Part shown: positions 337 to 57,790 of the stretch, in pieces | Layout: each line of letters begins with the position of its first letter | How positions within the stretch are numbered: position 1 is the first letter of the stretch | Assembly (NCBI GenBank): GCA_963745235.1 | Contig: CAVUXE010000053.1 | Span: 64,001-128,000, forward strand | DNA: 64,000 nt | Direction: 5' to 3' | From: an uncultured Spirochaetota bacterium | GTDB lineage: Bacteria > Spirochaetota > Spirochaetia > SZUA-6 > Fen-1364 | The notes under the pieces: generated by a model | The model's database searches: none | Seen by the model: the letters and a program-made list of their open reading frames with translations, nothing else | Told to the model about the DNA's origin: nothing | Made by a program: the position numbers and the translations under genes

Positions 337-615
337 CTACTCCTTGCGGCCGGTCAGCCGGATGATGTGATACCCGAAGGAGGACGAGACGACGTCGCTC
401 GTCGAGCCCGGGGACAGTCTCTTGCAGGCGTTCTCGAAGGCCGGTACCATTTTGCCCGGCCCGAACCATCCCAGGTCTCCGCCGCGCGACTTGGAGGGGC
501 ACACCGAGTGCTCGCGGGCAATCGTCTCGAAGCTTGCCCCCTGCTTGACCCGCCTGAGAAGCTCGTCCGCCAGCTTCTTTTCCTTGACCAGTATGTGGCT
601 TGCGCGCCATTCCAT
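337..615 (-). CDS. ppiC: Parvulin-type peptidyl-prolyl cis-trans isomerase
   Basis: RASHILV, CPSKSRGGDLGWF, MVPAFE and FGYHII rotamase motifs; about 92 aa. Confidence 0.95.
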   Translation of the reverse strand: MEWRASHILVKEKKLADELLRRVKQGASFETIAREHSVCPSKSRGGDLGWFGPGKMVPAFENACKRLSPGSTSDVVSSSFGYHIIRLTGRKE

Positions 616-688
616 GGCGTCCACTATAGAACATTTGCGCCCGGAGTTCCACTTGTGCTCACGTCGCTGGGTGATTTACAATTATGTC

Positions 689-1496
689 ATGGTGACTGAG
701 ATCCTGCGGCCGCAGAGCGTTCAGGAAGCCCTGAAGGCGAGATCCTTGCCTCACTGCGCGTACCTCGGCGGCGGCACGTGGCTGAATGCCTCACGGTCGG
801 AGACACCGGTAACGCTCATCTCCCTGGAAAAACTGGGGCTCCAGGGGATTGCAGCGGATCAGGGGCGCTGCGTGATCGGCGCAAGCGCCACGTTGCAACA
901 GGTGGTGGATCACGGCGGCGTGCCGGAAGCCGTCCGAAGCGCTTCAGCCCTGACTGCCTCCCGGACCCTTCGCAACATGATCACAATTGGCGGCGAGCTT
1001 GCGCTCCATCCCGCGGATTCTGCTCTTGTCCCCGTCCTCCTGGCCCTGGGGGCGCAGCTGTCCGTTGCGGGACGAAAGAAACCCGTCTCCCTGCATGCGT
1101 TCCTTTCTGACCGTTCGTTCGCCGGGACCAGCCTGGTTCTCTCCGTTTCGATCCCCGAGCCGCGTCGCAAAGCGGCCGTCCGCGCCGTCTCGCGGACATC
1201 CCACAGCAGCAGGAGCCTCGTGGTTGCCGCGAGCGCGGAAGCGCTTCTGCCCGTTGTCGTGGATTTGCGGCTCATTGCTCTCCGATTGCCGGGGGTCCAT
1301 CGTGCGCCTGACGAAGCTGGAAGCGGCCCTTGCGGGCCGGCCGCTTCCGCCCCGCTCGGACGTAGAAGCGGCTGCGGAGGCGGAGCTTCCTCAGCAGGCG
1401 GATATCCATGCCTCCTCCCAGTACAAGGCGTACATGACGCGTGTTCTTGCGGCGGATGTGCTGCGCGAGATGGCAGGCGGGAAAGGCGTTGTATGA
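689..1496 (+). CDS. ygfM: FAD-binding subunit of molybdopterin oxidoreductase (YgfM-like); frameshift near 1290
   Basis: YLGGGTWLN and LRNMITIGG motifs; the C-terminus ADIHASSQYKAY is in another frame ending at 1496; overlaps the xdhD start. Confidence 0.8.
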
Positions 1497-4309
1497 AGCT
1501 CACCTTTACGCTCAACGGTTCATGCCGCGTGGTTTCAGCGGAGCCGGGTGAGAGCCTCCAGGTCCTCCTGCAGCGCACCGGCATTCCCTCGGTGCGCTCC
1601 AGCGATGACGGAGAAGGCTTTTCGGGCAGCGACACGATACTCTTCGACGGCAAGGCGGTCCTTGCGGGTCTCATGGTCGCCGGTCAGGCAGAAGGCCATT
1701 CCATCGAAACAGTGGAGAGCTTGAGCAAGGACTCACGACTTTCCGTTCTCCAGCAGTCGATGATCGACGCGGGGGTGGTTCAATCCGCCTACAACGCTCC
1801 TGCCGCCGCCTTGCTCCTGGAGGACCTTCTCCGGCGCAACCAGGCTCCGACTGAGGAAGATATTCGCGACGCTCTCTCCGGGCTGTTCAGCCGTGCAACC
1901 GGCTACAAGCAGTTCTTCCTGGCGGTGGAGCTGGCCCGAAAACGCCGGCAGGACCAGGGCTGGAACCAGCCGGTTGCCCCCGCGTTCCGCGACGACCTGC
2001 GCGTCATCGGCAAATCGCACAGGAAGATCGACGGGGTGAAGCTTGCGGCGGGCATGAAGGCCTACGTCGAGGATCGGGTGGAGACGGGCAGCTGCGTCCT
2101 CGTCATGCTTCGAAGCCCGCACGCGCACGCGTTCATCAGGCACATCGACACCGCGGAGGCGCAGCGGCTTCCCGGGGTGGCGCTGGTGATCGACTACCGC
2201 AATTGTCCCGACGTTGCGTACGGCCAGGCAGGCCAGGGTTTTCCGGAGCCTTCGCCCTACGACTACCGCATGTTCAGCCGCACCGTGCGGCACATGGGGG
2301 ACAGGGTTGCAGCCGTGGTGGCGGATGATGCAGAGACTGCCCGTCGGGCCCTTGAGCTGATCCGCGTAGAGTACGACGTCATCCCCCCCGTGCTCTCCCT
2401 TGAAGATGCCATGGGCGGCACGCTTACGCCCGTCCACGCGGACCATCTCCAGGAGATCGTGTACCAGTTCTCCATCGGCGCGGAGGCGGCAAGGAATCTC
2501 GCGGCAAGCGCATCCGGAGGCACAGGGGATGTGGAGGCGGGTTTTCAGCAGGCGGATGCGGTCATCGAGCGCAGCTACTCGACCAGCCGGGTCCAGTGCA
2601 CGCCCCTGGAGCCGCACGTCGTCTACACGAAAATGGATGGTGATCGCCTGATCGTCCACGCCTCCACGCAGGTGCCGTGGCACCTGCGTCGGATCGTTGC
2701 GCGCGTGCTCGCGATGCCGGAGAACAGGATCAGAGTCATCAAGGAGCGCGTGGGCGGAGGCTACGGGAGCAAGCAGGACATCCTCCTGGAAGAGGTGTGC
2801 GCCTTGGCCACCGTGCGCACCGGAAGGCCTGTCCTGTACAAGTACACGCGGGAGGAAGAGTTCATTGCGGCCACGACGCGGCATCCTTTCCGGATCACGG
2901 TGAAGATGGGCGCGAAGAAGGACGGCACCCTCACGGCGATCCGGATGTCCGCGGACGCGGACACGGGAGCCTACGGAGAGCACTGCCTGACCGTCCCCAT
3001 GAACGCATGCTCCAAGTCTCTGCCCCTCTTCCGCTGCCCCAACATGGCCTTCGAGGTGCGAAGCTGGTACACGAACCACGTGCCCTCCGGCGCCTACCAG
3101 GGCTACGGCGCGCCGCAGGGCTCCTTCGCCCTGCAGATGGCGGCCGCGGAGCTGGCTGATGCGCTCGGGATGGACCTTGTGAGCTTCCTCGACAGGAACC
3201 ACGTCCGGGAGGGAGACGTCCTGGAGATCCTGAAGAGCCTCGGTGAGGGCAGGGAGGGCGCGGCGGCGCACGTGCGCAGCTGCGGCCTGGAACGCGCGCT
3301 CGCCGAGGGCGCCGGAGCATCGGGTGGGGTTGCCCGACGGAAGACGCCGGCGCGGATCCCGACGTGCGCATCGGCAAGGGCGTGGCCATCATCCAGCAGG
3401 GCTCGGGACTGCCCGGGGCTTGACCAGGCGTGCGCCGATGTGAGGCTCCTTTCGGACGGAACGTTCATGGTGCATTCCGGGGGCGCTGACATAGGCATGG
3501 GCCTGGATACGGTGCTTGCCAAGGTGGTTGCAGAGACCCTGTGCTGCGGCATGGACACGGTGTCCGTCATCTCCGGAGACACGGACACGACTCCGTTCGA
3601 CAAGGGGGCATATGCCTCCAGCGGCACCTATTTCAGCGGCAACGCTTCTCTGAAGGCGGCGCAGGCTTTGCGGGACAGGATCCTCCAGGTTGCCGCGACA
3701 ATGCTCAAGGAGCCTGTCAGCGGGCTTGCCCTCTCATTCCCCGGCATCGTCGAGGGAAAGAACGGGGCCGTTGACTTTGCCCGGATAGCCCACCACTGCC
3801 AGGGCGGCGAGGGGCCGGGCGAGCTCGTCGGGCACGCATCATTCACCACGGATGATGCCGCGTTCCCGTACGCCGCGCATTTCTGCGAGGTGGCGGTCAA
3901 CGTCCGCACGGGAGCGGTGGAAGTGCGCCGCTACCATGCCATCACGGATTGCGGCACGCCCATCAATCCCGAGCTGGCCCAGGGACAGGTATACGGGGCG
4001 ATTCTCAAGTCCATCGGGCACGCGCTGTACGAGGACATGGTCTTCGACGAGCAGGGACGGTGCCTCACAACCACGCTTGCCGATTACGGTGCGCCCATGA
4101 TCCAGGAGCTGCCGCGGGAGCTTGACGTGAGGTTCGTGGAAACGGATGATCCCTTCGGGCCGTTCGGGGGCAAGAGCGTCTCCGAGATCAGCATGAACGG
4201 GGCCGCGCCCGCCCTCGCCACCGCCATCCACGCCGCAACGGGCGTCTGGATGCGGGACTGGCCAATGACGCCGGAGAAGATACTGAGAGCACTGGGGAGG
4301 ATCAGGTGA
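1493..4309 (+). CDS. xdhD: XdhD-type molybdenum hydroxylase (degenerate Fe-S domain fused to Mo-binding domains)
   Basis: MKLTFTLNG...VRSSDDGEGFSGSD resembles E. coli XdhD; STQVP, VGGGYGSKQ, YQGYGAPQ, AYASSGT and GGKSVSE Moco motifs; short off-frame stretch at about 3320-3410. Confidence 0.9.
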   Translation: MKLTFTLNGSCRVVSAEPGESLQVLLQRTGIPSVRSSDDGEGFSGSDTILFDGKAVLAGLMVAGQAEGHSIETVESLSKDSRLSVLQQSMIDAGVVQSAYNAPAAALLLEDLLRRNQAPTEEDIRDALSGLFSRATGYKQFFLAVELARKRRQDQGWNQPVAPAFRDDLRVIGKSHRKIDGVKLAAGMKAYVEDRVETGSCVLVMLRSPHAHAFIRHIDTAEAQRLPGVALVIDYRNCPDVAYGQAGQGFPEPSPYDYRMFSRTVRHMGDRVAAVVADDAETARRALELIRVEYDVIPPVLSLEDAMGGTLTPVHADHLQEIVYQFSIGAEAARNLAASASGGTGDVEAGFQQADAVIERSYSTSRVQCTPLEPHVVYTKMDGDRLIVHASTQVPWHLRRIVARVLAMPENRIRVIKERVGGGYGSKQDILLEEVCALATVRTGRPVLYKYTREEEFIAATTRHPFRITVKMGAKKDGTLTAIRMSADADTGAYGEHCLTVPMNACSKSLPLFRCPNMAFEVRSWYTNHVPSGAYQGYGAPQGSFALQMAAAELADALGMDLVSFLDRNHVREGDVLEILKSLGEGREGAAAHVRSCGLERALAEGAGASGGVARRKTPARIPTCASARAWPSSSRARDCPGLDQACADVRLLSDGTFMVHSGGADIGMGLDTVLAKVVAETLCCGMDTVSVISGDTDTTPFDKGAYASSGTYFSGNASLKAAQALRDRILQVAATMLKEPVSGLALSFPGIVEGKNGAVDFARIAHHCQGGEGPGELVGHASFTTDDAAFPYAAHFCEVAVNVRTGAVEVRRYHAITDCGTPINPELAQGQVYGAILKSIGHALYEDMVFDEQGRCLTTTLADYGAPMIQELPRELDVRFVETDDPFGPFGGKSVSEISMNGAAPALATAIHAATGVWMRDWPMTPEKILRALGRIR

Positions 4310-5506
4310 TCACCATAACGCCGCATGACATCCAGAGACGGATCGACGCGCTGGGCAGGAAGACTGCTGCCGGGCTGCACGGGAAGGACTTCTTTCTCAC
4401 CTGGGACAAGACCCGGGAGGAGCTGGAGGCCATCCTGGAGATCGCGTCCATCCTCAAGGAGCTCCGCTCCAACAACATCTCCCCAAGGATCTGGGATTCC
4501 GGGCTGGCGGTCTCCCAGTTCCGTGACAACTCCACCCGCACCCGCTTCAGCTTCGCTTCCGCAAGCAACCTCCTGGGGCTCACGGTTTCCGACCTGGACG
4601 AAGGCAAGTCGCAGATAGCGCACGGGGAGACGGTGCGCGAGACGGCCACCATGATCTCCTTCATGGCGGAGGTCATTGGCATCCGTGACGACATGTACAT
4701 CGGGAAGGGCCACACGTACATGTTGAACGTTGCCGAGGCGGTGGAACAGAGCTACCGTGACGGCGTCCTGGAGCAGCGTCCCACGGTGGTCAACCTCCAG
4801 TGCGACATCGATCACCCCACGCAGACAATGGCGGACTTCCTCCATCTCGTGACAGAGCTGGGCGGCATCGAAAAGCTCAAGGGAAAGAAGGTGGCAATGA
4901 GCTGGGCCTACTCTCCCTCCTATGGAAAGCCGCTCTCCGTGCCCCAGGGCGTCATAGGCCTTTTCACCCGGTTCGGCATGGACGTTTCCCTCGCCTACCC
5001 GGAGGGCTATTCCCTCATGCCGGACGTGGTCGCCCAGGCGAGGAAGTCCGCAGCCTCCTCGGGAGGGAGCTTCCACATCAGCTCGTCCATGGAAGAGGCG
5101 TTCGAGGGGGCCGACATCGTATACCCGAAGAGCTGGGCGCCGTTTGCGGTGATGGAGGAGCGGACGAAGATCGTGGAGACGCGGGACACCAAGGCGCTTG
5201 CAGAGCTGGAGAAGCGGTGTCTTGCCAACAACGCCAGGTTCAAGAGTTGGGAGTGCACGGAGCAGCTCATGGCGCGGACCAACAGCGCCCTCTACCTCCA
5301 TTGCTCTCCCCGCCGACATCACGGGGGTGAGCTGTCCGGAAGGGGAGGTTTCCGCCTCGGTCTTCGAGCGCTTCCGGACCCCGCTGTACCGCCAGGCCGG
5401 CTACAAGCCGTACGTCATCGCAGCAATGATGCTGGGGTCACGCATTGCTGATCCCGCTGAGCGCCTCTCTTCGATTCTCGACCGGGCGGAGAGCCGGGTG
5501 CGCTGA
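4306..5506 (+). CDS. ygeW: Knotted carbamoyltransferase YgeW; frameshift near 5305
   Basis: FRDNSTRTRFSF, LQCDIDHPTQ, WAYSPSYGKPLSVPQG and YPKSW; C-terminus LPADITGVSC...AGYKPYVIAAM in a second frame. Confidence 0.92.
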
Positions 5507-5519
5507 GACTCCGGGGAAG

Positions 5520-8022
5520 ATGCGTCACCCACGTCCCCGCGGGGCCGCTTTCGCGCTTCTGGCCCTCGGGGTGCTCCTCTCGTCACCGCGGACCCTGCCG
5601 GCGCAGGAGCCAGGCCGCTCCCCCTCCCAAACCCCCGTTTCGCGAATCACGGTCGTCCTGGATGACGCCTACCCGCCGTACGTGTTCCGCGACGAGGGCG
5701 GAAACCTGCGCGGGGTCCTGGTGGACGACTGGCGATTGTGGGAGGAGAAAACAGGGGTCGCCGTCACCCTTGTGGGAACCGACTGGGACAAGGCGCTGTG
5801 GTTCATGGACCACGGGGACGCGGACGTCATTGACGGCATCTTCCTGACGCCGCGAAGGGCTGCGCTGTACGACTTCTCCCCGCCCTACGCGCGGATCGAG
5901 GTGCCGGTGTTTTTTCCCCGGGAGATCGGAGGCATCACGAATGATCCCCGCTCTCTTCTGGGCTTCACTGTCGGGGTGAAAAGCGGAGACGCGGCAGTGG
6001 CCTTCCTGCGGCAGGCGGGAGTCACATCCCTGGACGAGTTCCCCACCTACCGGGGCCTCGTCAAGGCTGCCGCGGAGAAGCGCATCAAGGTCTTCTGCGC
6101 TGACCTTCCTCCGGCTCTGTACTACCTCTACAAGATGGATCTGGAGGGTGACTTCCGCAGAAGCGCTCCCCTTTACATCGGGGAGTTGCACCGGGCTGTT
6201 CACAAGGGCAACCACGCCCTGCTTTCCCTTGTGGAGGAAGGCTTCTCCCGGATCACGCCCTCGGAGAATCGCGAGATCGAGAGACGGTGGCTGGGGACGC
6301 CCATTCAGCGCATGATCTATTACCAGTATGGCGCCTACGCGCTGGCCGCCGCGCTTGGCGCAGGGGCCCTCCTGCTCGGGCTCGTCCTGCTTGCCGTGGC
6401 CTTGCGCCGGCGGATCAGGGCGCGCACCGTTGAGCTGCGGGCCACCATGGAGGAGCTTCGACGGAGCGAAGCGCAGTTCCGCCTGCTCGCGGAGAATGCT
6501 GATGACGTCATTTGGACCATGGATCTGCAGGGGCGTTTCACGTACATCAGCCCCTCGGTCCAGAAGCTGCGAGGCTACACTCCCCAGGAAGTGATGGACC
6601 AATCCCTGGAGAAAGCTCTCACTCCCGACTCACTCCTGCTCGTGCAGGGCCTCATCGATGAGCTTTCCCGACGGATCGGGGAAGGGCAGCGTGACTTCGA
6701 CCTCCCGCCGCAGGAGGTGGAACAGCCCTGCAAAGACGGCAGCACGGTGTGGACGGAAGTGATCGTCACCCCGCTCTTCGACGAAGGGGGGAGCTTCCTC
6801 CGCCTCCTGGGCATTACGCGCGATATCAGCGAACGGCGCCGGAGGGAAGACGCCCAACGCGCTCTGGAGGCCCAGATGCTGCAGGCGCAGAAGCTGGAGA
6901 GCCTCGGCGTCCTGGCCGGCGGGATTGCGCATGACTTCAACAACATCCTGACCTCCATCCTGGGAAACGCGGAGCTCGCCCAAGGTGACCTGCCTGCCGC
7001 CTCCCCCGCCCGCGAAAGGATCAGAAGCATCGACGAAGCGTCACGGAGGGCCGCTGACCTGTGCCGCCAGATGCTCGCATACTCCGGGAGAGCGCGGGTC
7101 GTCGTGGAATCAGTCGACATCTCCGCGCTGGTGCGCGGGATGACGCACATGGTGCAGGTCTCCGTGTCCAAAAAAGCGACCCTGCGCTCGGCACTTCCGG
7201 ACGGCCTCCCCCTGGTGACGGCGGATGCGACGCAGATCCGCCAGATCGTAATGAACCTGATCATCAACGCCTCGGAGGCCCTTGGCGCGGAGGTGGGAGA
7301 CGTCTCCGTGGCCACGGGGGTCAGGGACTGCACGGCGGAGTACCTTGCCGGATGTTTCCCGGGAGGCCCGCTGCCCGGAGGGGCCCTACGTGTACATCCA
7401 GGTGGATGACACCGGGATCGGGATGGATGAGGCCACGATCCCGAAAATTTTCGACCCCTTTTTCTCGACCAAGTTCACCGGCCGCGGGCTCGGACTGGCT
7501 GCCGTGCTGGGGATCGTCCGGGCCCACAAGGGGGCAATCCGGGTGACAAGCGTTCCCGGCAAGGGGACGACTTTCCGCGCGTACCTTCCCGTGGCTTCGA
7601 AAGGCCCTCACGATCAAGCACTGCGCCCCAGGCGCTCCCCGGAATGGAAAGGCAGCGGCACTGTCCTTCTGGTCGACGACGAGGAGACGGTCCTTGCCGT
7701 CGGGAAGGTGATGCTGGAAAGGATCGGCTTCACCGTGATAACGGCCACCGACGGGATCCAGGCGCTCACGATGTTTCGCGACCACAGGGCTGAGGTGGCC
7801 TGCGTCATCCTGGACCTGACGATGCCTCGCATGGACGGGGCGGAGACCTTCCGGGAGCTGCGCGCCATTGATTCCCGTGTTCGTGTCGCGGTCTCCACGG
7901 GCTATGGCGAGCAGGAAGTGGCCGCCCGTTTCGCGGGAGACGGCCCCGCGGTCATCATCCAGAAGCCGTATCGAAAGGCTGAGCTGGCGCGGGCCCTGGA
8001 GACTCTCCTGGGACGCAGCTGA
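5520..8022 (+). CDS. Hybrid sensor kinase (periplasmic amino-acid-binding domain, TM, PAS, HisKA, HATPase, REC); frameshift near 7380
   Basis: [12 protein letters not shown] domain, PAS (FTYISPSV), [14 protein letters not shown]-box, DTGIGM and GRGLGL G-boxes, LLVDDE and LDLTMP receiver. Confidence 0.9.
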
Positions 8023-8049
8023 GCGTCGCGGCGCCGGAAAGATGACCCA

Positions 8050-8079
8050 TGGCAACCGCACCCATCGGCCGGCTATAAT
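8050..8079 (+). promoter_or_regulatory. Sigma70-like promoter of pfkA-GAPOR (probably leaderless)
   Basis: TGGCAA-18 nt-TATAAT (8074-8079), 5 nt before ATG 8085, no SD. Confidence 0.55.
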
Positions 8080-8084
8080 GGCTT

Positions 8085-9215
8085 ATGGCAAAAAAGACGC
8101 GCATCGGGATCCTCACGGCAGGCGGTGACAGCCCCGGGTTGAACGCGGCCATCCGTGGGGTCGGGAAGGCGGCGCTGGGGCACTACGGGATGGAGTTCAT
8201 CGGCTTCCGCGACGGGTTCCGCGGGCTGGCGGAGAACCGTACCATGCAGCTGGACAAGACCACCTTGTCAGGCATCCTCACTGTCGGCGGCACCATCCTG
8301 GGAACGAGCAGGGACAAGCCGCACCGAATGGAAATCAACGGCCAGGCCCGCGACATGACGGCGGAGATCGTCGATGTCTGCAGAAAGAACAGCCTGAACG
8401 TCCTGGTATGCCTGGGCGGCGGAGGGACCCAGCGCAACGCCTTGCGGCTGGTGAAGGCCGGGCTCCCCGTGATAACGCTGCCCAAGACAATCGACAACGA
8501 TGTCGCCCTGACGGATGCGACCTTCGGATTCGACACGGCCATGGGGATCGCCACAGACGCCATTGACCGGCTGCACAGCACGGCGCACAGCCACCACCGC
8601 ATCGTCGTGGTGGAGGTCATGGGCAACCGGGCCGGGTGGCTCGCGCTCGGGGCCGGGATCGCCGGCGGCGCTGACGTGATTCTGATCCCGGAGATTCCCT
8701 ACGAGGTGGGCAGCATAGCGCAGGCAATCCGGGAGCGCAGCAGGCATGGCACGAACTTCAGCATCGTGGCGGTGGCCGAAGGCGCCATGAGCGGCGCGGA
8801 CTGGCACACGCGGCGGGCCGCGGAGCAGAAAAGGGCGGCGGCGCAGACCGAGACTGACCGGCAGGCCGCGCGCCTGGAGCTGGGAACGCTGGATACCCAC
8901 CATGAGGGCAACACAATGAGGCTCGCCCGGCAGCTGGAGGAGCTGACGGGCCTGGAATCACGCGTCACCATCCTGGGCTACGTCCAACGGGGAGGCACCC
9001 CCTCTCCCGCGGATCGCCTGCTGGCTACCCGCCTCGGGACCGCCTGCGCGGATTTCATCGCCCAGGGAGCTTTCGGCGTCATGGTGGCCGCCCGCGGGGA
9101 AGGAGTGGCCCCCGTGCCGATAGAGGAAGTTGCCGGAAAAGTGAAGACGGTTCCCCCGGACCATCCCTGGATCCAGACCGCGAGGCGGGTAGGGACCTGC
9201 CTCGGAGACCAATAG
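8085..9215 (+). CDS. pfkA: 6-phosphofructokinase (group III type, probably ATP-dependent)
   Basis: [36 protein letters not shown] and LGYVQRGG motifs. Confidence 0.95.
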
Positions 9216-11084
9216 ATGGACCAGAAGGTGCTCCTGATCGATGCGCACACGGGCTTCTACAGGGTCCGCCGCTACGAGGTCGGGAGATTCTTTGGACCCG
9301 TTGACCTCGGTCTCCACCTTTCCTCCCACACGCAGTCCCTGAACATCGGCGTGGGCCTCCTCGCCGGCTCGATTTTCCCGGCTCGAACCGCCTCTTCGTG
9401 ACCGGGTTCTCCCCGTGCTGGCGCGGTTTCTTTGTCTCGTCCATGGGAGGTGCCGGCCTCGTGTTCGACAACCTCGGGCTGAACATGGTGTCCCTCATCG
9501 GCAAGGCGCCCCTCCCTTCCATCCTGTACCTGAACCGAAACCGCGGGGAGGAAGTGGAAGTGGAGCTCCTGCCCGTGCAGGCAACCGAGGTCTGGGCGCA
9601 CGGCCGGGGAGGCGCTTACGCGCTCATGGACCACGTGCACACGCTTCTCGGAGGCCGCTATGCAACCGACCCTCGGGTCCTCGCAACAGGACCGGCCGCG
9701 CTCTCCACGGACATGGGCGGCATTCTCTCGGTGCCTGTGGTCCAGGGAAAGCTCACCGCCGTGGATACCTGGGCCGGTCGGGGCGGCATGGGCAGCAAGA
9801 TGCTCCAGGAGCACGGGATTGCCGCCGTCATATTCGGCGGGACCTACGTGGATGAGGACTTCCGTGACAGGAAGGTGGCAGACGAGTGGTTCGAGGCCAA
9901 GTACAAGCAGCGGCTGCTTGCCAAGGACATGGAGGCAACCACCAAGTACCGCTACGACCCGAAGTTCGATACGGGAGGGACCTTCGGGGTGAACTACGCC
10001 GGGGTGAAGGGCCGCCTCATTGCCTTCAATTACAAGTCCCTCCTGCAGACGGAGGACAGCCGTCTGGAGCTGCACGAGAGGCTTATCCGGAATCACTACC
10101 TCGCGCAGTTCAACGAAGAGACAATCGTGCCCCGCCGGCAGCACACCTGCGGCGAGCCATGCTCCGCGGTGTGCAAGAAGATGAAGGATGACTACAAGAA
10201 GGACTACGAGCCCTATCAGGCCATGGGTCCCCTGTGCGGGGTCTTCGATCAGCGCGCCGCGGAAAAGCTCTGCCATCACGCGGACGTCCTGGGGTTTGAC
10301 GCAATCTCTGCCCGGCGGCGTCCTGGCCTGGATGATGGAGATGCTGGAGGAGGGGCAGCTCACCCAGGAGGATCTCGGCGTTTCGCGGCTGCCGCGGTGG
10401 CGGGTGGAAGGGTTCGACCCCGCGGCAGATTCCCTGCACAACGCGGAGCTGGGTGTGGAGCTCCTCGATTCCATCGTCATGTGCCGGGGAGTGGTGGACC
10501 TGTCGCAGGGAGCACGCAAGTGGGGGCGGCAGCTTTCACGGGCGCGCGGCAAGCGGCTCCTGGACAGCTTCGTGTACGTCGCCTTCGGGCGCCAGGGATG
10601 GATGGTCCCCAACCAGTACTGGGCTCCGGGGGTCCTTGCGCCCATGCCCATCATGGGGAAGTACTACATGTACTACGGCTTTGCCTTCGCGCCGCCGCGC
10701 ACGCTCGGCCGCCTGTGCGCGGAGAGGTTCCAGAAGGAGCTTCTCCTTGATACGGCTGGTTTCTGCCGGTTCCATCGCGGCTGGGCGGAGGAGACCGCTG
10801 CTGAGATATTCGGAAGCATTTTCGGCAAGAAAGATGAGCTCATAGAATCAACGGCGGTCACGGCGAGCAGGATAAACTCCCGCAACGCATCCGTATACTG
10901 GGAATCGGAGCGGAACGTCGACTTCGTGCTGTCCTTCCTGCGCCGGGCGCGCGACGTGGAAGGGGAGACGGATCCCGAGCTCGTGTCGTGGATCCAGCGC
11001 TTCGAGAAAGACCGGAAAGAGGCGGCGCTGGACTGGTGGTTCGAAGTGCGCAAGGGCGTGGATGAGAGCCTGAGGGAGTTCTGA
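9216..11084 (+). CDS. Glyceraldehyde-3-phosphate:ferredoxin oxidoreductase (GAPOR)-like W/Mo-pterin enzyme, AOR family; frameshifts near 9380 and 10310
   Basis: Joined frames give about 620 aa with SSMGGAG, WAGRGG, TTKYRYDPKFDTGGTFG, CGEPCSAVCKK, YEPY, GFDAIS and GFCRFHRGW, matching motifs I recall for archaeal GAPOR. Confidence 0.8.
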
Positions 11085-11125
11085 GGCGACAGCGATCCGA
11101 CGACGGGCCGTCGACGCTTCCTTCG

Positions 11126-11154
11126 TTGCATAGACCTCCGATCCGGCTTACACT
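11126..11154 (+). promoter_or_regulatory. Promoter of the MNT-HEPN operon (probably leaderless)
   Basis: TTGCAT-17 nt-TACACT, 6 nt before ATG 11161. Confidence 0.6.
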
Positions 11155-11160
11155 TCCCTT

Positions 11161-11580
11161 ATGCGCATCCTGCGCTCGCGGCTTGCGGATTTTTGCAGGG
11201 CTCATTCCATAGAAATCCTCTACGCATTTGGAAGCAGGGCGCGTGCCGCCCTGGACTCCCTTGACGACGTTCGAAGCGGTTTTGAGAGCGCTGGGTCGGA
11301 CCTGGACATTGGCGCGAAAGTCTCGGTTGACTCGCGTGTCGACGTGCGTGAAAAGGCAGTGATTGCAGTGGGGCTCGAGGATTTGTTCGGCGTCTCCCGG
11401 GTGGACCTCGTTCTCCTGCACGAAGCGGATCCTTTCCTTGCCGCCAACGTTATCCGCGGTGAACGCCTCTATTCCGTGGATGCCCATGCTGCGGATGAGT
11501 ATGAGCTGTACGTTCTCCGCAGGGCAGGAGACTGCGCTCCTCTTGAGCGTGAGAGGCTCGCGCTGCTCGAGGAATCATGA
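11161..11580 (+). CDS. Minimal nucleotidyltransferase (MNT/MntA-like antitoxin)
   Basis: YAFGSRAR...SDLDIG and VDLVLL Pol-beta motifs; ATGA overlap with the HEPN gene. Confidence 0.88.
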   Translation: MRILRSRLADFCRAHSIEILYAFGSRARAALDSLDDVRSGFESAGSDLDIGAKVSVDSRVDVREKAVIAVGLEDLFGVSRVDLVLLHEADPFLAANVIRGERLYSVDAHAADEYELYVLRRAGDCAPLERERLALLEES

Positions 11581-12158
11581 GCCCGGGGAAAGTGTCGCGG
11601 AGAATCCTCCTGGACCGCCTCTCGTGGGTGGATCGGATGATTTCGGGGATCCGCTCCCTTCCCTTGCAAAGCATGAGCGCGTTTGCTTCCGACTCACGAA
11701 ATGTCTGGAATGCGGAGTCCTGCCTCAGGAGGGCGCTTGAAGCCCTCTTTGATATCGGGCGGCACGTCCTGGCCAAGGGTTTTGGGAAAGGGGTTTCCGA
11801 GTACCGGGAGATCGCGGACAAGCTTGCTGAAAGCGGCGTTCTCTCAGGGCCGCAATCCCAGCTTCTCAAGATTCTTGCGGGCTACCGAAACAGGCTTGTT
11901 CATTTCTACCACGAGGTCTCTCTGGATGAGCTTTCCCAGACCTGCACCACCCAGCTCGGAGATGTCGTCGCGATGAGAGACGCCTTCCGTGCGTGGCTCG
12001 ACTCGCACCCCCCGCTCATCGACGACAGTCTCTCGGCGGCTTCCCCGTATGCATCACGAGGAACTTCACGATCTCAAAGCAGATGTGGTTCCCGCGCGCC
12101 GCTCATAAGCGGTCCACGGCGTCGTCGTACTGCTCCCGTGTGTCGATGTCCCGGGTGA
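11577..12158 (+). CDS. HEPN/DUF86 (HepT-like) RNase toxin; homology ends near 12030
   Basis: RNRLVHFY matches RX4HXY; EALFDIGRH helix. The expected stop after LIDDSL is missing. Confidence 0.85.
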   Translation: MSPGKVSRRILLDRLSWVDRMISGIRSLPLQSMSAFASDSRNVWNAESCLRRALEALFDIGRHVLAKGFGKGVSEYREIADKLAESGVLSGPQSQLLKILAGYRNRLVHFYHEVSLDELSQTCTTQLGDVVAMRDAFRAWLDSHPPLIDDSLSAASPYASRGTSRSQSRCGSRAPLISGPRRRRTAPVCRCPG

Positions 12159-12675
12159 CGGAGTCCTCAGGCCACGGGACTTCCTCCACCGTGAAGCGTG
12201 AAAGAAGACTCGGCATGGAACCCGTCACCGGGTCAGCAGCCAGGACCGCATCACGGACGGCTTTCCCCAGGAGGACAGGGTGCCCTCTCTCCCCATCGAA
12301 AACAGGGAATATCGCGTCGGCGTATTCGGCGCGGAGCAGGGATGAGTAGACATCCCGCGTAATGAAAGGCTTGTCTGCAAGAACGATGAAGAACCGCTCC
12401 GTGTCCACGCAGGAGGCGCCGCGTTGGATGGAGGAGAACATCCCCCTCTCCCAGCCCGGGTTTGCAGCAAGAGTCACCCTGTCGTCTCCTCGCAGGACGG
12501 CCGCAAGCTCGGACCCCCGGTAGCCGGTGACGACGATCACCCGCTGGCACGCGGAAAGGGCGGTTCGCACGACGGTCTGGATGATGGTTGATCCACGGAA
12601 CGGAAGGAGGGGTTTCCACTGACCCATGCGGGCGGAACGCCCCGCCGCCGGGACGATGCAGGTCACCGGGTCCAC
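12103..12675 (-). CDS. mocA: Molybdenum cofactor cytidylyltransferase (MocA/YgfJ-like)
   Basis: PAAGRSARMGQWKPLL, GMFSSI, LADKP, GHPVLL and DIDT motifs; near an MCD-requiring XdhD. Confidence 0.8.
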   Translation of the reverse strand: MDPVTCIVPAAGRSARMGQWKPLLPFRGSTIIQTVVRTALSACQRVIVVTGYRGSELAAVLRGDDRVTLAANPGWERGMFSSIQRGASCVDTERFFIVLADKPFITRDVYSSLLRAEYADAIFPVFDGERGHPVLLGKAVRDAVLAADPVTGSMPSLLSRFTVEEVPWPEDSVTRDIDTREQYDDAVDRL

Positions 12676-12680
12676 GCGAC

Positions 12681-12750
12681 ATGCTACACGCGGCCGCCGC
12701 CCGGCGCAAGGCGCTCCGACCTTGACCGTCCCATGGCGGAACTGTATCGT
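12681..12750. promoter_or_regulatory. Divergent promoters for mocA and adenosine deaminase
   Basis: Minus strand: TTGCGC-17-TAGCAT, 5 nt before GTG. Plus strand: TTGACC-17-TATCGT, 7 nt before ATG. Confidence 0.55.
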
Positions 12751-12757
12751 GAACCGG

Positions 12758-13973
12758 ATGACGTACAGGTATGATCCGGCTTTCATCCGCGCCATCCCCA
12801 AGACGGACCTGCACGTTCACCTCGACGGGTCCCTTCGAATCGGCACCCTGATCGAGCTTGCGCGGGAACGGAAGGTCGAGCTCCCGTCCTTCACGGAGGA
12901 AGGGTTGAATGAAAAGGTCTTCAAGCCCTCCTATGCGAATCTCCTCGAGTACCTGAGCGGCTTCACCTGGACTCTCAAGGTCCTTCAGGACAAGGAGTCG
13001 CTGGAAAGAGCGGCATACGAGCTCGCAATGGACAACTGGGCGGAGGGGGTCAGGTACCTCGAGGTCCGCTTCGCTCCGCAGCTTCACATGTCCCCCTCAT
13101 TTGGCCTGGACGGGGTGGTGCAGGCAGTGGACGGGGGGCTCCGCAGGGCGCGGGAGGAGATAAACCGCGGCCTGGCGGACACCGAGCCTCCCTTCGACTA
13201 CGGTGTGATCCTCTGCGCTATGCGTTTCTTCACCCCCGAGTTCTCCGAGTACTACCGGAACCTCACCCGGGTCCTTTCCGCTTCCAGCAGCCATGACATC
13301 ATCCGGACGGCGGGGCTGGAGCTTGCCCGGGCCGCCGTGCGGCTTCGCCGGGAAACGGCTCTGCAGGTGGTCGGCTTCGACCTTGCCGGGCAGTGAAGAA
13401 GGCTATCCGGCAAGCGAGCACGAGGAGGCCTACGAGTATGTCCACCGGCATTTCCTGAAGAAGACCGTCCACGCGGGAGAGGCGTACGGGCCCGAATCGG
13501 TCTTCCAGGCCATCGCCAAGCTGCACGCGGACAGGATAGGACACGGGCTGCACATGTTCGACGAGGACATGATCTCCACGGGCAGCGAGCCGGAGAAGAA
13601 GGCGTACGTGGAAAACCTGGTGAACTATATTGCGGAAAACCGCACCACCATCGAGGTCTGTCTCACGAGCAACCTCCAGACCTCTCCGGGCCTTGTGGAT
13701 GTGCGGGACCATTCCCTGCAGAAGATGCTGGACCACCGCCTGTCCCTGACGTTCTGCACGGACAACAGGCTCGTATCCCACACCACCGTCACGAGGGAGC
13801 TCACTCTTGCCCTGGACAATTTCTCCATCCCGCCGGACCAGCTCAAAGACATCATCGTCTACGGATTCAAGCGCTCGTTCTACTACCACCCCTACTCGGA
13901 AAAGAGGAAGTGGGTGCGGAACGTCATCGACTATTACGAGGCGGTAGAGGAAAAGTTCGGGATCGATTCGTAG
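12758..13973 (+). CDS. add: Adenosine/adenine deaminase; frameshift near 13390
   Basis: PKTDLHVHLDGS, YLEVRFAP, GFDLAG, TVHAGE, RIGHG, EVCLTSN and TDN motifs. Confidence 0.88.
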
Positions 13974-23045: not shown

Positions 23046-24580
23046 TCAGTTTTCTTTCCTGCTCTGGGCCGGGCACGGCCCGCGGGCCGTGCCTCCCGCG
23101 CTTCCTCCCGCGGCCGGCTGCGCCCTGCCCGGCGGAAACCTGCCCTCCCGCTCGGCGCCCGTGGATGCCGCCTCCCGATCATGGTTGTACACATCCCACA
23201 CAAGGTACCGGGAAAATGCCTCTTCGATGACAGGGGCGATACGGGAAGGATTGATGGCAACGTGATGCTCGAACCCCCGTGAGCAGATGTGGCGCAGCAG
23301 CGCCTGCAGTCGAGGGATCCGCGCCACCGCGTAGCCGCCGAACGTGTTGATGGGGTCCGTGGTGATCTCCCCCTCCCCGACGTACGCGCGGATTCTGCCC
23401 GGCGAAGTCGTCCGTGGAAACCCGGCAGTAGGTGAAGTCAGTGGGCGCGAGCCGGCCCACGACGGTCCCGTAGGTTTTCTCCCTGCCCACGGTCCCCGCG
23501 AGGATCTCCTGGTAGTCCATGACTCCCTTGTTCGCGAAGAACTCCTGGGGAAAGTTGCTGCAGTGGAAGAGCACGCACTTGTCCGGGTCATCGGAGTAGT
23601 TGTTGTTCCAGTCCGCCATGCCGCTGGGCCTTCCCGACGCCTGGATCATTGCATACATCCCCAGGAGCCCGCTGATGTCCGTTTCGCACGCCGACGGGGA
23701 AAGGGCATTGCTCAGCATGCTCATCACGGTGCAGGGAACCACCCCGAAGTTCTCCTCCATCGACGTCCAGCACTGAATCGCGGTGCCGGAAAGCTCCCGC
23801 TCCGCGATGTACTGGTCCAGCACCACGGCGAACTTGGCCATGCGCACCAGGGATTCCCGGGGGATTCTGGTCGTCTTCACGTAGTCCCGGATCTCGTCCA
23901 GCTTGGAGAGCACGGAGGACTCCTTGTCGTTCAGGCCCCACGCGCGGCCGAAAATCTCCGAGAGGTCTATGCTCTCCACGGAGATTCCCGTCCGTTCCAG
24001 GAGCTTCTCGCTGTAGCGCACGGTGGCGAAAGCCGCCGGTCGGGCGCCGATCTGCGCGAAGCGGGCCTTTCGCATTCCCTTCACCACCCGGCATGTCCCC
24101 GCGAACTCTCGCAGGTCGGACGCGGAACGCTTCTGACTCCGGGTCCATGGTGTGCTCCGAGGTGAGGGAGTAGCGAATGCCGTACTGGGTGAGGTTGTTG
24201 CATGCGGACATCTTGCCGCAGAAGCTGTCCCGCCGGTGCTCGATTGCCATCCGTCCCGGCTCATCGGGGAACGCGTGGACCAGCACCGGGACATCCAGCC
24301 CCGACAGCTTGATGGTATCCGCGATCCCGCGCTCATCACCGAAGTTCGGGAGGGTGACAAGGATTCCGTCGATCTTCTCCCGGTTGGCCTTGAAGAGCTC
24401 CGCGCACTTTTTCGCATCCGCATGGGATTCCACGGATCCGAACTTCGTGTCCTTCGGGCCCAGCGCCACCGCTTCCAGCCCTTCCTCCTTGAGGACCGAA
24501 AGGATGATCTTTCTTCCCTGCTCGCAAAGCTCGGCCGGGAAAAAGCCCCGGTTGCCGACAAGCACACCGAGCGTGGTCAT
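23046..24580 (-). CDS. L-fucose/L-arabinose isomerase-family protein; frameshifts near 24130 and 23400
   Basis: [43 protein letters not shown]. Confidence 0.85.
23072..23093. other. Perfect GC-rich inverted repeat between the isomerase and araB
   Basis: GGCACGGCCC-GC-GGGCCGTGCC; no U-tract, so a possible mRNA-stability hairpin. Confidence 0.4.
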
Positions 24581-27522: not shown

Positions 27523-28815
27523 CTATGATTTCTTTTCAAACCGGCTGTTGGACAGAAGAAGCGCAAGAATGAACCCGATGACCAGGAAGCCGCCGCTCGC
27601 CAGAAAGGCGAGCGTGGATGCCCGGTCGGGAACCTTGTCTTTCAGGACAGCGACGATCTGCGGGCCCACGATGCCGCCCGCAGACCACGCGGTGAGGATT
27701 GCGCCGTACACGGCCGGCATGAGGCGCGGACCGAACACGTCGCCAATGAATCGCCGGCATGGTGCCGAAGCCGCCCCCGTAGCACAGGAGCACCCAGCAC
27801 GCGAGGACGGCGAAGAGCCAGGGATTCCCGGCGATGGCGAGAACCGCAAACACGATGATGCCCGAGCCGAGCATGATCCGGAAGGTCTGCGCCCTGCCGA
27901 TCCGGTCCGAGACGGCGCCCCAGAAAAACCTGCCAACTCCGTTGAACAGTGAGCTGACGGCAATGAGCGTGGCGCCGAAGCCCGCCAGGGCGAGCGCGGA
28001 GAGAGTCGGGTTCGTGCCCTTCAGAAGGCTCTGCAGCAGCGGGGACTGAAAGCTGATGATCGAGATGCCCGCTGTAATGTTGCAGAAGAACACGACCCAC
28101 AGGAGCGCGAACCGGCCGGAGAAGATCGCCTTCGAGGCGGAGACGTCGTCTTCGACCCTGGGGCCGCGCGTGTTTGAACCGGCGGGGAATACCCCCTGGG
28201 CAGCCACCCCGCCGGCGGGTCCTGCATGAACCAGGCAGAACCGACCGCCAGGACGACAAACACCGCCGCAAGAAGGAAGAAGACAGGGACCAGGCTGGCG
28301 CCGCCGGTGATCGAAAGGAAAAGAGGGGCAAGCAGCTTGCTCATGAAGAGCGCGCCGAGGCCGAACCCCATGATGACCATGCCGGTGGCGAGCCCCTTCT
28401 TGTCGGGGAACCATTTTGCAACCGTCGCAACGGGGGTCACGTAGCCCAGTCCGAGGCCGATCCCCCCTATCACGCCGTAGCCCAGATACAGGAGCGGCAG
28501 AGACTTGATGCTCAACGCCACGCCGCCCAGCGCGTAGCCCAGCGCAAAGAGCAGGCCTCCCCACATGGCCATTTTCCGCGGACCGATTCTCGAGAGCCAT
28601 GTCCCTCCCCAGGCCGCGGTAATCCCGAGGAAGAGGATGGCAAAGGAAAAGATCCACGCGACTTCGCTGTTCGACCAGCCGAAATCCGCCTTGAATTGGC
28701 GCACCAGGAGGTCCTGGAAAAAGCTCCAGGCGTAGACGGTGCCCAGGCAGAGCATGAGGACCACGCCCATTGCTGCGATCAACCAGCGATTCGCGGTCTG
28801 CGATTTGTCGGCCAT
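27523..28815 (-). CDS. OFA-family MFS transporter (oxalate/formate/L-lactate type); frameshifts
   Basis: GTVYAWSFF, KWFPDKKGLATG, FNGVGRFFWGAVSDRIGR, YGGGFGTMPA. Confidence 0.88.
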
Positions 28816-28869
28816 ACGGATGCCTCTCTTTTTCTGGCAGGGCTGCTTTGAATGTGCGGGCTTGATCAG

Positions 28870-28910
28870 TGATATATCAGATTCGCGGCGAATTGTCAAC
28901 AATTGTTAAC
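28870..28910 (-). promoter_or_regulatory. Promoter with palindromic operator-like sites upstream of MFS-AKR-lctP
   Basis: Perfect TTGACA -35 on the minus strand; palindrome TGATATATCA and near-palindrome AATTGTCAACAATT. Confidence 0.5.
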
Positions 28911-56255: not shown

Positions 56256-57596
56256 TCAACGGGGTCGTGCGATGACCTCCGCGAGGGCCTTCTTCTCAGC
56301 GAGCTCGGCTTTCAGCATTTCCTCCCTCGCCTTGTTCACGTAGTTCCTGGCCTGGAAAGAATAGGTAAAGTTCGTGTGGATGTCGTACGTTCCTTCCATG
56401 AGGGCGTGCGTGTCCTCGGTCATGACGAGCTCTTCATCCGTCGGAATGACGAAGACGCGCACCTTCGAGCCCGCCCCCGTTATTTCGGTCTCCGCGTTGC
56501 GCGTCATGGAGATTTCGTTCTTCTTCTTGTCCAGGACGATCCCCATCTCCTCCAGCCCTTCCAGGCACTTCTCTCGGGTGATGGGGCCTCTTTCCCCGAC
56601 TCCCGCCGTGAAAACCACGGCATCCACCCTGCCGAGCGCCGCGTAGTAGGCCCCGAGGTACTTCTTCAACCGGTAGCCCTCGAGGTCGATGGACAGCTGG
56701 CAGCGCTCGTCACCGGCGCAGGCGCCGGTCTCGATGTCCCGCCTGTCCGTGTACTTCCCCGTGATCCCAAGCACCCCGCTCTTGCGGTTCAGGATGCTTT
56801 CCATGGCCTCGGGACGGAGGCCTTCCTTGCGCATCACGTAGAAGCCGATGGTGGGGTCGTGGTCCCCCGCGCGCGTGCCCATGACGAGCCCCTCCAGCGG
56901 GGTGAAGCCCATGGATGTGTCCAGGGAGACTCCGTTTTTCACGGCGTTCGCGCTGGAGCCATTGCCGATGTGGAAGCACACGAGGTTCGTAGCGAACGGG
57001 TTTTTCCCCAGGAGGACCGCGGCCCTCTTGGAGACATAGAGAAAGGAGGTGCCGTGGAAACCGTAGCGGCGCACCCGGTAGTTTTCGTACCACGAATACG
57101 GCAGCGCGTACATGAACGACGTTGTCGGCATTGTCTGGTGCCATGCCGTGTCCATGACGGCGCAATGCGGCACGTTGGGGAGCACCTCGCGCGCTGCCTC
57201 GATGCCGGTGATGTTGGGCGGGTTGTGCAGGGGTGCCAGGTCGGACAGCTCACGGAAGGTCGCCAGCGCGTGCTCGTCAATGATCACCGACTTGGCGAAC
57301 TTGTCTCCCCCGTGCACCACGCGGTGGCCCACCGCCTTGATGTCGGAGAGGCTCGTGATGGCCCCCACGTCGGGGTCCAGCAGCGTCTTCACGATCAGCT
57401 CGATTGCCTCCTTGTGGTTGGGGCAGTCGTGCTCCCGCTTGATCTTCTTTCCGATCCTCCTTGCGTAGTGGCTGATGAACGACCCGCCGACGGTAACGCG
57501 TTCGACGATACCTTGCGCAAGGACGTCGCGCTCTTCCCAGCGATAGAGCTGATACTTGAGCGACGAGCTGCCGCAGTTGAGGGTCAAAATGTCCAT
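56256..57596 (-). CDS. ackA: Acetate kinase
   Basis: [41 protein letters not shown]. Confidence 0.96.
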
Positions 57597-57790
57597 TGGA
57601 TGTTCCCTTTCATTCGCGGCAAGCCGCCCGCGCCGGGCCGGGCCGCGCACTCAGCATCCTGAGTGATATCCGCAATGCGTTCTCAGGTCAAGCCGACGGG
57701 CAAACGAAGCAAACGACAGACCTGCAAACGCCTTCGAAGCGCAAGCGCCACCGGCACAAGCGTCGGGTCGCGCGTCCTGTATTCCTATCG

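Follow-up and report, generated by a model that had tools for sequence, protein, structure and literature searches.

A GAPOR-lineage oxidoreductase gene directly downstream of an atypical pfkA paralog in a spirochaete genome: a candidate ferredoxin-linked glycolytic bypass

Does a spirochaete oxidize glyceraldehyde-3-phosphate (GAP) in the manner described for archaea, and is the enzyme tied to the glycolytic-type kinase encoded next to it? The question is raised by a stretch of 64,000 nucleotides, positions 64001-128000 of contig C53 (the window), from a genome of 5.85 Mb in 104 contigs with an estimated completeness of 85.7%; the records of its relatives are metagenome-assembled genomes (MAGs) of Spirochaetia or Spirochaetota. 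Here the TAG stop codon (9213-9215) of a phosphofructokinase (PFK) family gene, pfkA (8085-9215, plus strand), is followed directly, with a spacer of 0 nt, by the ATG (9216) of a gene of the aldehyde ferredoxin oxidoreductase (AOR) superfamily (9216-11084, plus strand). This junction can be read directly in the sequence, as an earlier reading made from the sequence alone had described it. That sequence-only reading took the second gene, which it saw to be split by two indels, to encode a homolog of the archaeal GAP:ferredoxin oxidoreductase (GAPOR). We favor, with a probability of about 60%, the view that the locus is an intact two-gene unit that would specify an accessory PfkA-family kinase followed by a GAPOR-lineage enzyme oxidizing GAP with ferredoxin.

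Lineage of the oxidoreductase

The five motifs singled out in the sequence-only reading (TTKYRYDPKFDTGGTFG, CGEPCSAVCKK, YEPY, GFDAIS and GFCRFHRGW) are all present in translations of the GAPOR-like gene. The sole NCBIfam match of the protein is GAPOR_Arch (NF040818), which scores 211 and 84 bits with pieces of the window gene and 336 bits with the intact protein of a congener; the same model was the best NCBIfam match for all 58 proteins scanned. In Pfam, the intact congener protein exceeds the cut-offs of both models that mark the AOR/tungsten oxidoreductase (WOR) superfamily (AFOR_C, 73.6 bits, cut-off 27; AFOR_N, 63.9 bits, cut-off 29.8). The middle piece of the window gene reaches 34.3 bits with AFOR_N and 27.2 bits with AFOR_C, and the last piece, at 21.3 bits, stays under the AFOR_C cut-off. 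AFOR_C matches are weak in GAPOR-type proteins generally (74 bits here, 64 for the Pyrococcus furiosus enzyme and 73 for its Methanococcus maripaludis homolog); the one ordinary AOR of the window genome, encoded on contig C97, scores 394 bits with this model.

Two trees were inferred, one with FastTree (107 rows: 85 GAPOR-like proteins and 22 AOR-family outgroups) and one with IQ-TREE under LG+C20 in a quick run (51 rows: 43 GAPOR-like proteins and 8 AOR-family outgroups). The outgroups include Escherichia coli YdhV, and the reference rows are without CbGOR, FOR, WOR4 and WOR5. In both trees, the split between all of the GAPOR_Arch-matching proteins and the AOR outgroups has full support (100), and the branches that separate the two sides are 2.2 to 3.3 long. 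A phylogeny had been proposed as a check in the sequence-only reading; these trees place the window protein on the GAPOR side of this split, against 22 as well as against 8 outgroups, but outside the subgroup of assayed enzymes. The assayed-type subgroup (13 rows, support 93) comprises Pyrococcus, Thermococcus and Methanococcus proteins along with proteins of the Aquificota genus Thermovibrio. The window protein belongs to a separate subgroup (23 rows, support 90) and, inside it, to a tight 11-row clade (support 100) in which every named member is bacterial, members from Bacteroidota included. Among the deeper relatives of the 11-row clade are proteins with Woesearchaeota and Nanoarchaeota names, both DPANN archaea. 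Identity of the window protein to AORs is 17-19%.

For a comparison of residues, 21 signature positions were picked from the alignment positions with at least 90% conservation over the 85 GAPOR-like rows, and at each of the 21 the window protein has the same residue as P. furiosus GAPOR and the M. maripaludis homolog. At 12 of these positions the commonest residue in AORs is a different one (R154, H200, Y245, G255, T256, R283, P333, Y468, Y487, E508, R518 and W523); Arg154, His200 and Tyr487 are among the positions that differ in most AOR outgroups. Among the 21 are also the residues expected of the superfamily, C312, C316, C320, C517, E332 and D362 (congener numbering), all of them present in the window protein. 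Conservation of the four cysteines is complete across the 22 AOR outgroup rows and reaches 98-100% among the 85 GAPOR-like ones; for E332 and D362 it is 95-98% in either set. Going by the AOR structure of P. furiosus, we take the cysteines to be the [4Fe-4S] ligands, E332 to be catalytic and D362 to bind the pterin. The alignment to 1AOR spans the EYE, GLD and AGLC motifs. Four arginines conserved in GAPOR-type proteins (R154, R283, R518 and R521) might bind the substrate phosphate. One member of the bacterial clade, P0122, which shares 46% identity with the window protein, lacks three of its cluster cysteines, with D, S and S in their stead, and carries Lys in place of Tyr487; it looks like a cofactor-less derivative.

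As judged from its sequence, the protein most likely belongs to the GAPOR lineage of the AOR superfamily, in a separate, bacteria-wide subclade. The idea of an archaeal-type GAPOR homolog in a spirochaete is supported by the GAPOR_Arch match, the long-branch split from AORs and the 21 signature positions. The more specific equation with the Pyrococcus/Methanococcus enzyme stands as far as these positions go, but not in the placement of the protein, which lies outside their subclade at 33% identity.

Frame breaks in the GAPOR-like gene

As assembled, the gene is spread over three frames (9216-9398, 9401-10309 and 10308-11081), and two run-length corrections turn it into one frame of 622 codons. 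The first break falls in a run of four T residues (9373-9376, plus strand), where public contigs have five T in all three covering runs (X1, X2 and X3); the second falls in a run of three C residues (10311-10313, plus strand), where they have two C, again in all three covering runs (X1, X2 and X4). The contigs used for this comparison came from four metagenome runs (X1-X4) of four studies and were aligned onto the window; they are at least 99% alike to it, some without any other difference across more than 500 bases. The window assembly may stem from the sample of one of these runs, which tells to some extent against the case for an intact gene. The corrected run lengths yield GSIFPGSNRLFVTG and GFDAISAGGVLAWMM, both in agreement with the gene of a congener (G015), which is intact and encodes 622 aa. 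Across 611 alignment columns, the GAPOR-like sequence is 90% identical to this orthologue and has no further defects, and in all 11 congener loci that were fetched the three pieces lie in one frame.

Four more genes of the window are split: a hybrid histidine kinase gene (5445-8022), an adenosine deaminase gene (12626-13973), a fucose-isomerase-like gene (23049-24567) and a gene for a transporter of the major facilitator superfamily (27539-28902). Each is read in two overlapping frames, which align to successive stretches of a single Pfam model, and indels seem to occur in the assembly at a rate of about one per 10 kb. A DNA alignment of the window with the congener (77% identity, 136 gaps) does not pin these other breaks. 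The deaminase gene is intact in G015, and protein comparison puts its break in the window near 13383-13390, where no clear base run was found. Hence, homopolymer error is not demonstrated for every frame break of the window.

The two breaks in the GAPOR-like gene are most likely assembly indel errors, and the gene is probably intact in nature, because near-identical contigs carry the corrected lengths, the congener genes are intact and other window genes are split as well. The opposite view, that the frameshifts are real in the window strain and that the gene is a recently inactivated pseudogene, can appeal to the presence of both breaks in the assembly as given and to seven of 20 congeners in which the gene had no match, so that it may be dispensable. 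However, five of these seven genomes are less than 85% complete, both sites are single-base run-length differences with in-frame lengths in three of three covering runs each, the 90% identity to the intact orthologue comes with no other defect, and at least four other genes of the same 64 kb are split in a like manner. We hold a pseudogene to be very improbable and rejected this reading on the strength of the public contigs, the intact congener gene, the one-frame congener loci and the other split genes. The sequence-only reading was right about the two indels, but its expectation that they hide the gene does not hold; most likely, the frameshifts reflect assembly quality and not biology.

The pfkA paralog and the gene neighborhood

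The product of the upstream gene (376 aa; PF00365, 321 bits; NF002872, 387 bits against a cut-off of 253) passes the PF00365 and the NCBIfam ATP-PFK subfamily cut-offs; the PFK equivalog models are not reached. It is one of four PFK-family proteins encoded in the genome, the others being one of the ATP type and two of the pyrophosphate (PPi) type. GGDG(S/T) forms the nucleotide/Mg site of E. coli PfkA. At this motif (near 8409-8423) the window PfkA has GGGGT in place of the GGDGS of E. coli PfkA. The GGGGT version is common to both orthologous pfkA genes (four fetched loci: L141/L021 and L142/L016), and the other three PFKs of the window genome have GGDGT or GGNDS. The motif therefore leaves the substrate and the phosphoryl donor of the window PfkA unsettled; either may be unusual. 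The protein also has LPKTIDND where E. coli PfkA has LPGTIDND, a difference that the two orthologous genes share.

A Shine-Dalgarno-like GGAG lies inside the end of pfkA (9204-9207, plus strand), 8 nt before the ATG at 9216, and translation of the GAPOR-like gene may be coupled to that of pfkA. A scan of positions 7800-11400 gave no promoter-like site. It gave six terminator-like sites (2.4 expected), five of them within pfkA or the GAPOR-like gene and the sixth (11176-11188) just inside the open reading frame (ORF) that follows; the scan sets no transcript boundaries.

The sequence-only reading had regarded the PFK operon context as independent evidence for GAP as the substrate and had proposed a survey of pfk adjacency among bacterial homologs. 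Such a survey was made on 12 genus loci (the window and 11 fetched congener loci) and on 80 species-level loci, the best 80 of at least 562 confirmed relatives in species-representative genomes. Adjacency proved not to be conserved. In the genus, pfkA adjoins the GAPOR-like gene in only three of the 12 loci, those of the window genome (G000), G006 and G020, with spacers of 0, 192 and 13 nt, respectively. A tblastn search with the window PfkA gave a match in three of the 80 species-level loci; two are adjacent, both in the same genus, and the third lies 4 kb off on the opposite strand. A conserved pfk operon was accordingly rejected. This pfkA paralog was found only where it adjoins the GAPOR-like gene: at a threshold of E<=1e-30 the search came up empty in G014 and in G015, whose genome is 97% complete, and all that G007 offers is a 40% relative. 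In congeners without pfkA, ygeW is directly upstream of the GAPOR-like gene (L015, L017, L019 and L020). By this comparison of loci, the accessory pfkA was inserted once between ygeW and the GAPOR-like gene, in a single lineage-specific event, so pfk adjacency is not repeated independent evidence. The window genome additionally has a sensor kinase gene upstream of pfkA.

With one insertion at its origin, the junction might have no functional meaning at all: pfkA would have landed once, and the tight spacing would be a local accident. The confinement of the adjacency to three genomes with spacers of 0, 192 and 13 nt, the failure to find the paralog in G015 or G014 at the threshold given, the mere 40% relative in G007 and the two adjacent cases among 80 species-level loci, both from one genus, all fit this possibility. 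Yet the newcomer is a glycolytic-family kinase, kept on the same strand and directly upstream in three diverged genomes (89-93% identity), and glycolytic neighbors arise independently in other lineages. We consider an accidental junction possible but somewhat doubtful.

Around the two genes in the window, all on the plus strand unless stated, lie a gene for a fused xanthine-dehydrogenase (XDH) family molybdoenzyme with FAD, 2Fe-2S and MoCo-binding domains (422-4309; Pfam matches), a gene for a YgeW-type knotted carbamoyltransferase (4306-5451; NF005538, 570 bits against a cut-off of 453) and the split hybrid sensor histidine kinase gene (5445-8022; SBP_bac_3, PAS, HisKA, HATPase_c and receiver domains, matched on 5445-7406 and 7282-8019). 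Downstream follow a nucleotidyltransferase and HepT-like ribonuclease pair of the toxin-antitoxin type (11161-12158; PF18765 and PF01934) and a gene for a MocA/YgfJ-like molybdenum cofactor cytidylyltransferase (12103-12801, minus strand; PF12804, 116 bits; TIGR03310, 142 bits, below the cut-off of 186). The toxin-antitoxin-type pair, which sits between the GAPOR-like gene and mocA, is absent from that place in G015 (L002), and the mocA-like gene is the conserved downstream neighbor in the genus (L002/L015). The XDH-family, YgeW, MocA-like and adenosine deaminase genes make up a block in the style of purine catabolism on either side of the GAPOR-like gene (422-5451 and 12103-13973). In this block ygeW, the GAPOR-like gene, mocA and the deaminase gene are syntenic with G015; the XDH gene lies beyond the compared part of the G015 locus. 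Much farther away, the window also holds ackA (56259-57650, minus strand; Acetate_kinase, 445 bits), as the sequence-only reading had stated.

In other lineages, the immediate neighbors of the GAPOR-like gene were scanned at the 80 loci (138 of the 145 flanking ORFs, the seven longest being left out). Pyruvate kinase is encoded directly downstream in two loci (L067 and L092), KDPG aldolase upstream in one (L067), phosphoglucomutase upstream in two (L079 and L084) and a small, two-cluster Fer4 ferredoxin upstream in two (L083 and L092; two of the 138 ORFs). PFK is the neighbor in two loci, and the remaining neighbors are unrelated genes. The tightest glycolytic contexts are the arrangements KDPG aldolase, GAPOR-like gene, pyruvate kinase (L067:5102-9333) and ferredoxin, GAPOR-like gene, pyruvate kinase (L092:5500-9364). 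The glycolytic neighbors perhaps go back to three or four separate origins, among spirochaetes and genomes of the Desulfuromonadales type. Central-carbon neighbors seem to be more frequent than one would expect by chance. A gene for iPGM lies within 4 kb in five spirochaete loci; this linkage is weak evidence because the five form one syntenic group and have unrelated genes in between. One spirochaete MAG has an ordinary AOR gene (L045:7919-9655; AFOR_C, 350 bits) directly downstream of its GAPOR-like gene.

Substrate, metabolic setting and spread

The GAPOR-lineage protein might act on some other aldehyde, either phosphorylated, carboxylated or produced in purine degradation, with pfkA as an incidental neighbor. 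Its separate subclade and 33% identity to the assayed enzymes leave room for such a substrate, as do the conserved genus neighbors, ygeW and the MocA-like gene, and the XDH-family enzyme and adenosine deaminase encoded nearby; the substrate range of single-subunit WORs varies widely, according to a recent study (PMC13328260). Against another aldehyde stand the 21 positions identical to those of the Pyrococcus and Methanococcus GAPOR-type proteins, the lineage-specific Arg154 and Tyr487 among them, and the unrelated lineages that place pyruvate kinase, KDPG aldolase, phosphoglucomutase or pfk next to the gene. Furthermore, we know of no flanking purine-type enzyme that releases an aldehyde. On balance, we regard a different substrate as unlikely, and GAP:ferredoxin activity would be the best-supported function.

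Several observations weigh against assigning that function to the two-gene unit. The NF040818 score of 336 bits is far under the equivalog cut-off of 1300. The protein falls in a different subgroup from the assayed enzymes, not within the Pyrococcus/Methanococcus group, and is only 33.6% identical to the P. furiosus enzyme and 32.8% to the M. maripaludis homolog. No enzyme assay of this bacterial subclade was found in the literature searched. The stable neighbors in the genus (ygeW on one side, mocA and then adenosine deaminase on the other) are of the purine-catabolism type and not glycolytic, and the pfk adjacency traces to one event. With GGGGT in place of GGDGS, the activity of the window PfkA itself is not certain. 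Finally, clustering of the 537 ORFs within 4 kb of the GAPOR-like genes gave no neighbor family in more than eight of the 80 loci, and on this count any conserved partner gene was rejected. As to the first of these points, the P. furiosus enzyme passes the cut-off (1392 bits) and the M. maripaludis homolog also fails it (618 bits). In practice the cut-off captures Thermococcales enzymes; failing it therefore says little about activity.

In the unit we favor, a pfkA-family kinase gene, carrying a ribosome-binding site within its own end, would be followed without spacer by the gene for a single-subunit tungsto- or molybdopterin [4Fe-4S] oxidoreductase. The enzyme would oxidize GAP directly to 3-phosphoglycerate and pass the electrons to ferredoxin. 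As a bypass alongside GAP dehydrogenase (GAPDH) and phosphoglycerate kinase (PGK), the reaction would give up one ATP per triose for low-potential electrons, which [FeFe]-hydrogenases could release as H2. The pairing with the kinase of the other committed glycolytic step might create one switchable module dedicated to catabolism only.

The genome is consistent with a bypass of this kind. The survey suggested in the sequence-only reading, for tup genes, gapA, pgk and hydrogenases, found candidates for each: on contig C44, an ABC ATPase gene grouped with genes for proteins resembling TupA (233 bits, cut-off 400) and TupB (180 bits, cut-off 320); two GAPDH genes, of which one exceeds the TIGR01534 cut-off; one PGK gene; and six Fe_hyd_lg_C matches indicative of [FeFe]-hydrogenases. 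Four POR_N matches of the pyruvate:ferredoxin oxidoreductase (PFOR) type were found in addition. With its hydrogenases, PFOR-type genes, ackA and the TupA/TupB-like transporter, the genome is equipped for the demands of a ferredoxin-yielding bypass. The TupA/TupB-like pair speaks only indirectly for a tungsten or molybdenum cofactor. The proposal of such a bypass is to this extent borne out, but GAPDH and PGK are retained; because the genome keeps both, a GAPOR step would run beside them and not replace them.

The protein resembles archaeal GAPOR (EC 1.2.7.6; P. furiosus and M. maripaludis; NF040818; WOR clade 23, Class I) in belonging to the same lineage apart from ordinary AORs, in having one large subunit, about 620-650 aa long, and no gene for a partner subunit, in its pattern of Pfam and NCBIfam scores, and in all 21 signature positions, with the four cluster cysteines, the catalytic Glu and the pterin-binding Asp. 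It differs by its 33-34% identity, its membership in a bacterial subgroup nested among DPANN-archaeal relatives and a host that also has GAPDH, PGK and bacterial PfkA-type kinases. A second system for comparison is the GOR (formerly XOR) of Caldicellulosiruptor bescii. A 2026 classification assigns P. furiosus GAPOR to WOR clade 23, a Class I group, and GOR to clade 20 of Class II; C. bescii is reported to run GOR beside GAPDH, with ferredoxin-linked oxidation of GAP, the reaction proposed here (PMC13328260). By literature placement, not by sequence comparison, GOR is in a different WOR clade from GAPOR, as the sequence-only reading had held. GOR is a heterodimer with a four-cluster polyferredoxin subunit encoded alongside, whereas no polyferredoxin subunit gene was found beside the window gene or its relatives (138 neighbor ORFs, 80 loci); a single large subunit without such a neighbor is a feature of Class I WORs.

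The GAPOR-like gene is present in 13 of 20 genomes of the genus, in 16 of 24 of the family and in one of the 16 genomes searched from other families of the order. In a broader search, at least 562 places were confirmed among the 600 pattern matches listed in species-representative bacterial genomes. The best 80 of these are all bacterial, with 62-100% identity, and are distributed over Spirochaetota (32), Thermodesulfobacteriota (13), Acidobacteriota (8), Bacteroidota (7), Myxococcota (6), Planctomycetota (3) and smaller groups (6), four having no phylum on record. The subclade spans at least 11 named phyla and branches among DPANN-archaeal relatives. Its members include a protein of a cultured isolate, Pelovirga terrestris M08fum. 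A MAG labeled Lysobacterales has a GAPOR-like protein almost identical to that of P. terrestris (L067 and L050; branches of 0.06), which suggests either that the MAG was wrongly binned or that the gene was transferred very recently. Parts of the window locus were found in 20 public runs from 12 studies, labeled as peat, soil, wetland, freshwater-sediment or plain metagenome; occurrence in peat and soil suggests a mesophilic host.

The prediction that automated annotation would miss the gene was not borne out: JGI records name many of the orthologues "glyceraldehyde-3-phosphate dehydrogenase (ferredoxin)", and NCBI lists them as generic AOR-domain proteins. According to a 2025 review, GAPOR is for the most part specific to archaea, and hits in bacteria are to be put down to the unrelated GOR (PMC12525153); a further article likewise describes GAPOR as still largely archaeal, with bacterial cases credited to GOR (PMC12965863), and a paper on Margulisbacteria includes GAPOR in a bacterial metabolic cartoon (PMC6349859). 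Reviews call GAPOR largely archaeal, yet the branch was confirmed at no fewer than 562 places in species-representative bacterial genomes.

The gene can be regarded, from the comparisons above, as a further member of the GAPOR lineage, with the pfk coupling local to one spirochaete lineage. On a wider account, GAPOR would be no preserve of archaea or hyperthermophiles: the subclade would have spread from archaeal relatives to anaerobic bacteria in at least 11 named phyla, where it runs a ferredoxin-yielding bypass at the expense of ATP, and one spirochaete lineage would have hard-wired that bypass to a newly acquired, atypical GGGGT PfkA, making a two-gene flux module for catabolism only behind a sensor kinase; we put this forward tentatively, at a little less than even odds. 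The P. terrestris isolate makes the question directly testable. If GAP is indeed oxidized, many anaerobes of soil, peat and sediment can trade ATP for reduced ferredoxin in glycolysis, and the H2 and acetate yields and the tungsten or molybdenum demand predicted by metabolic models would change.

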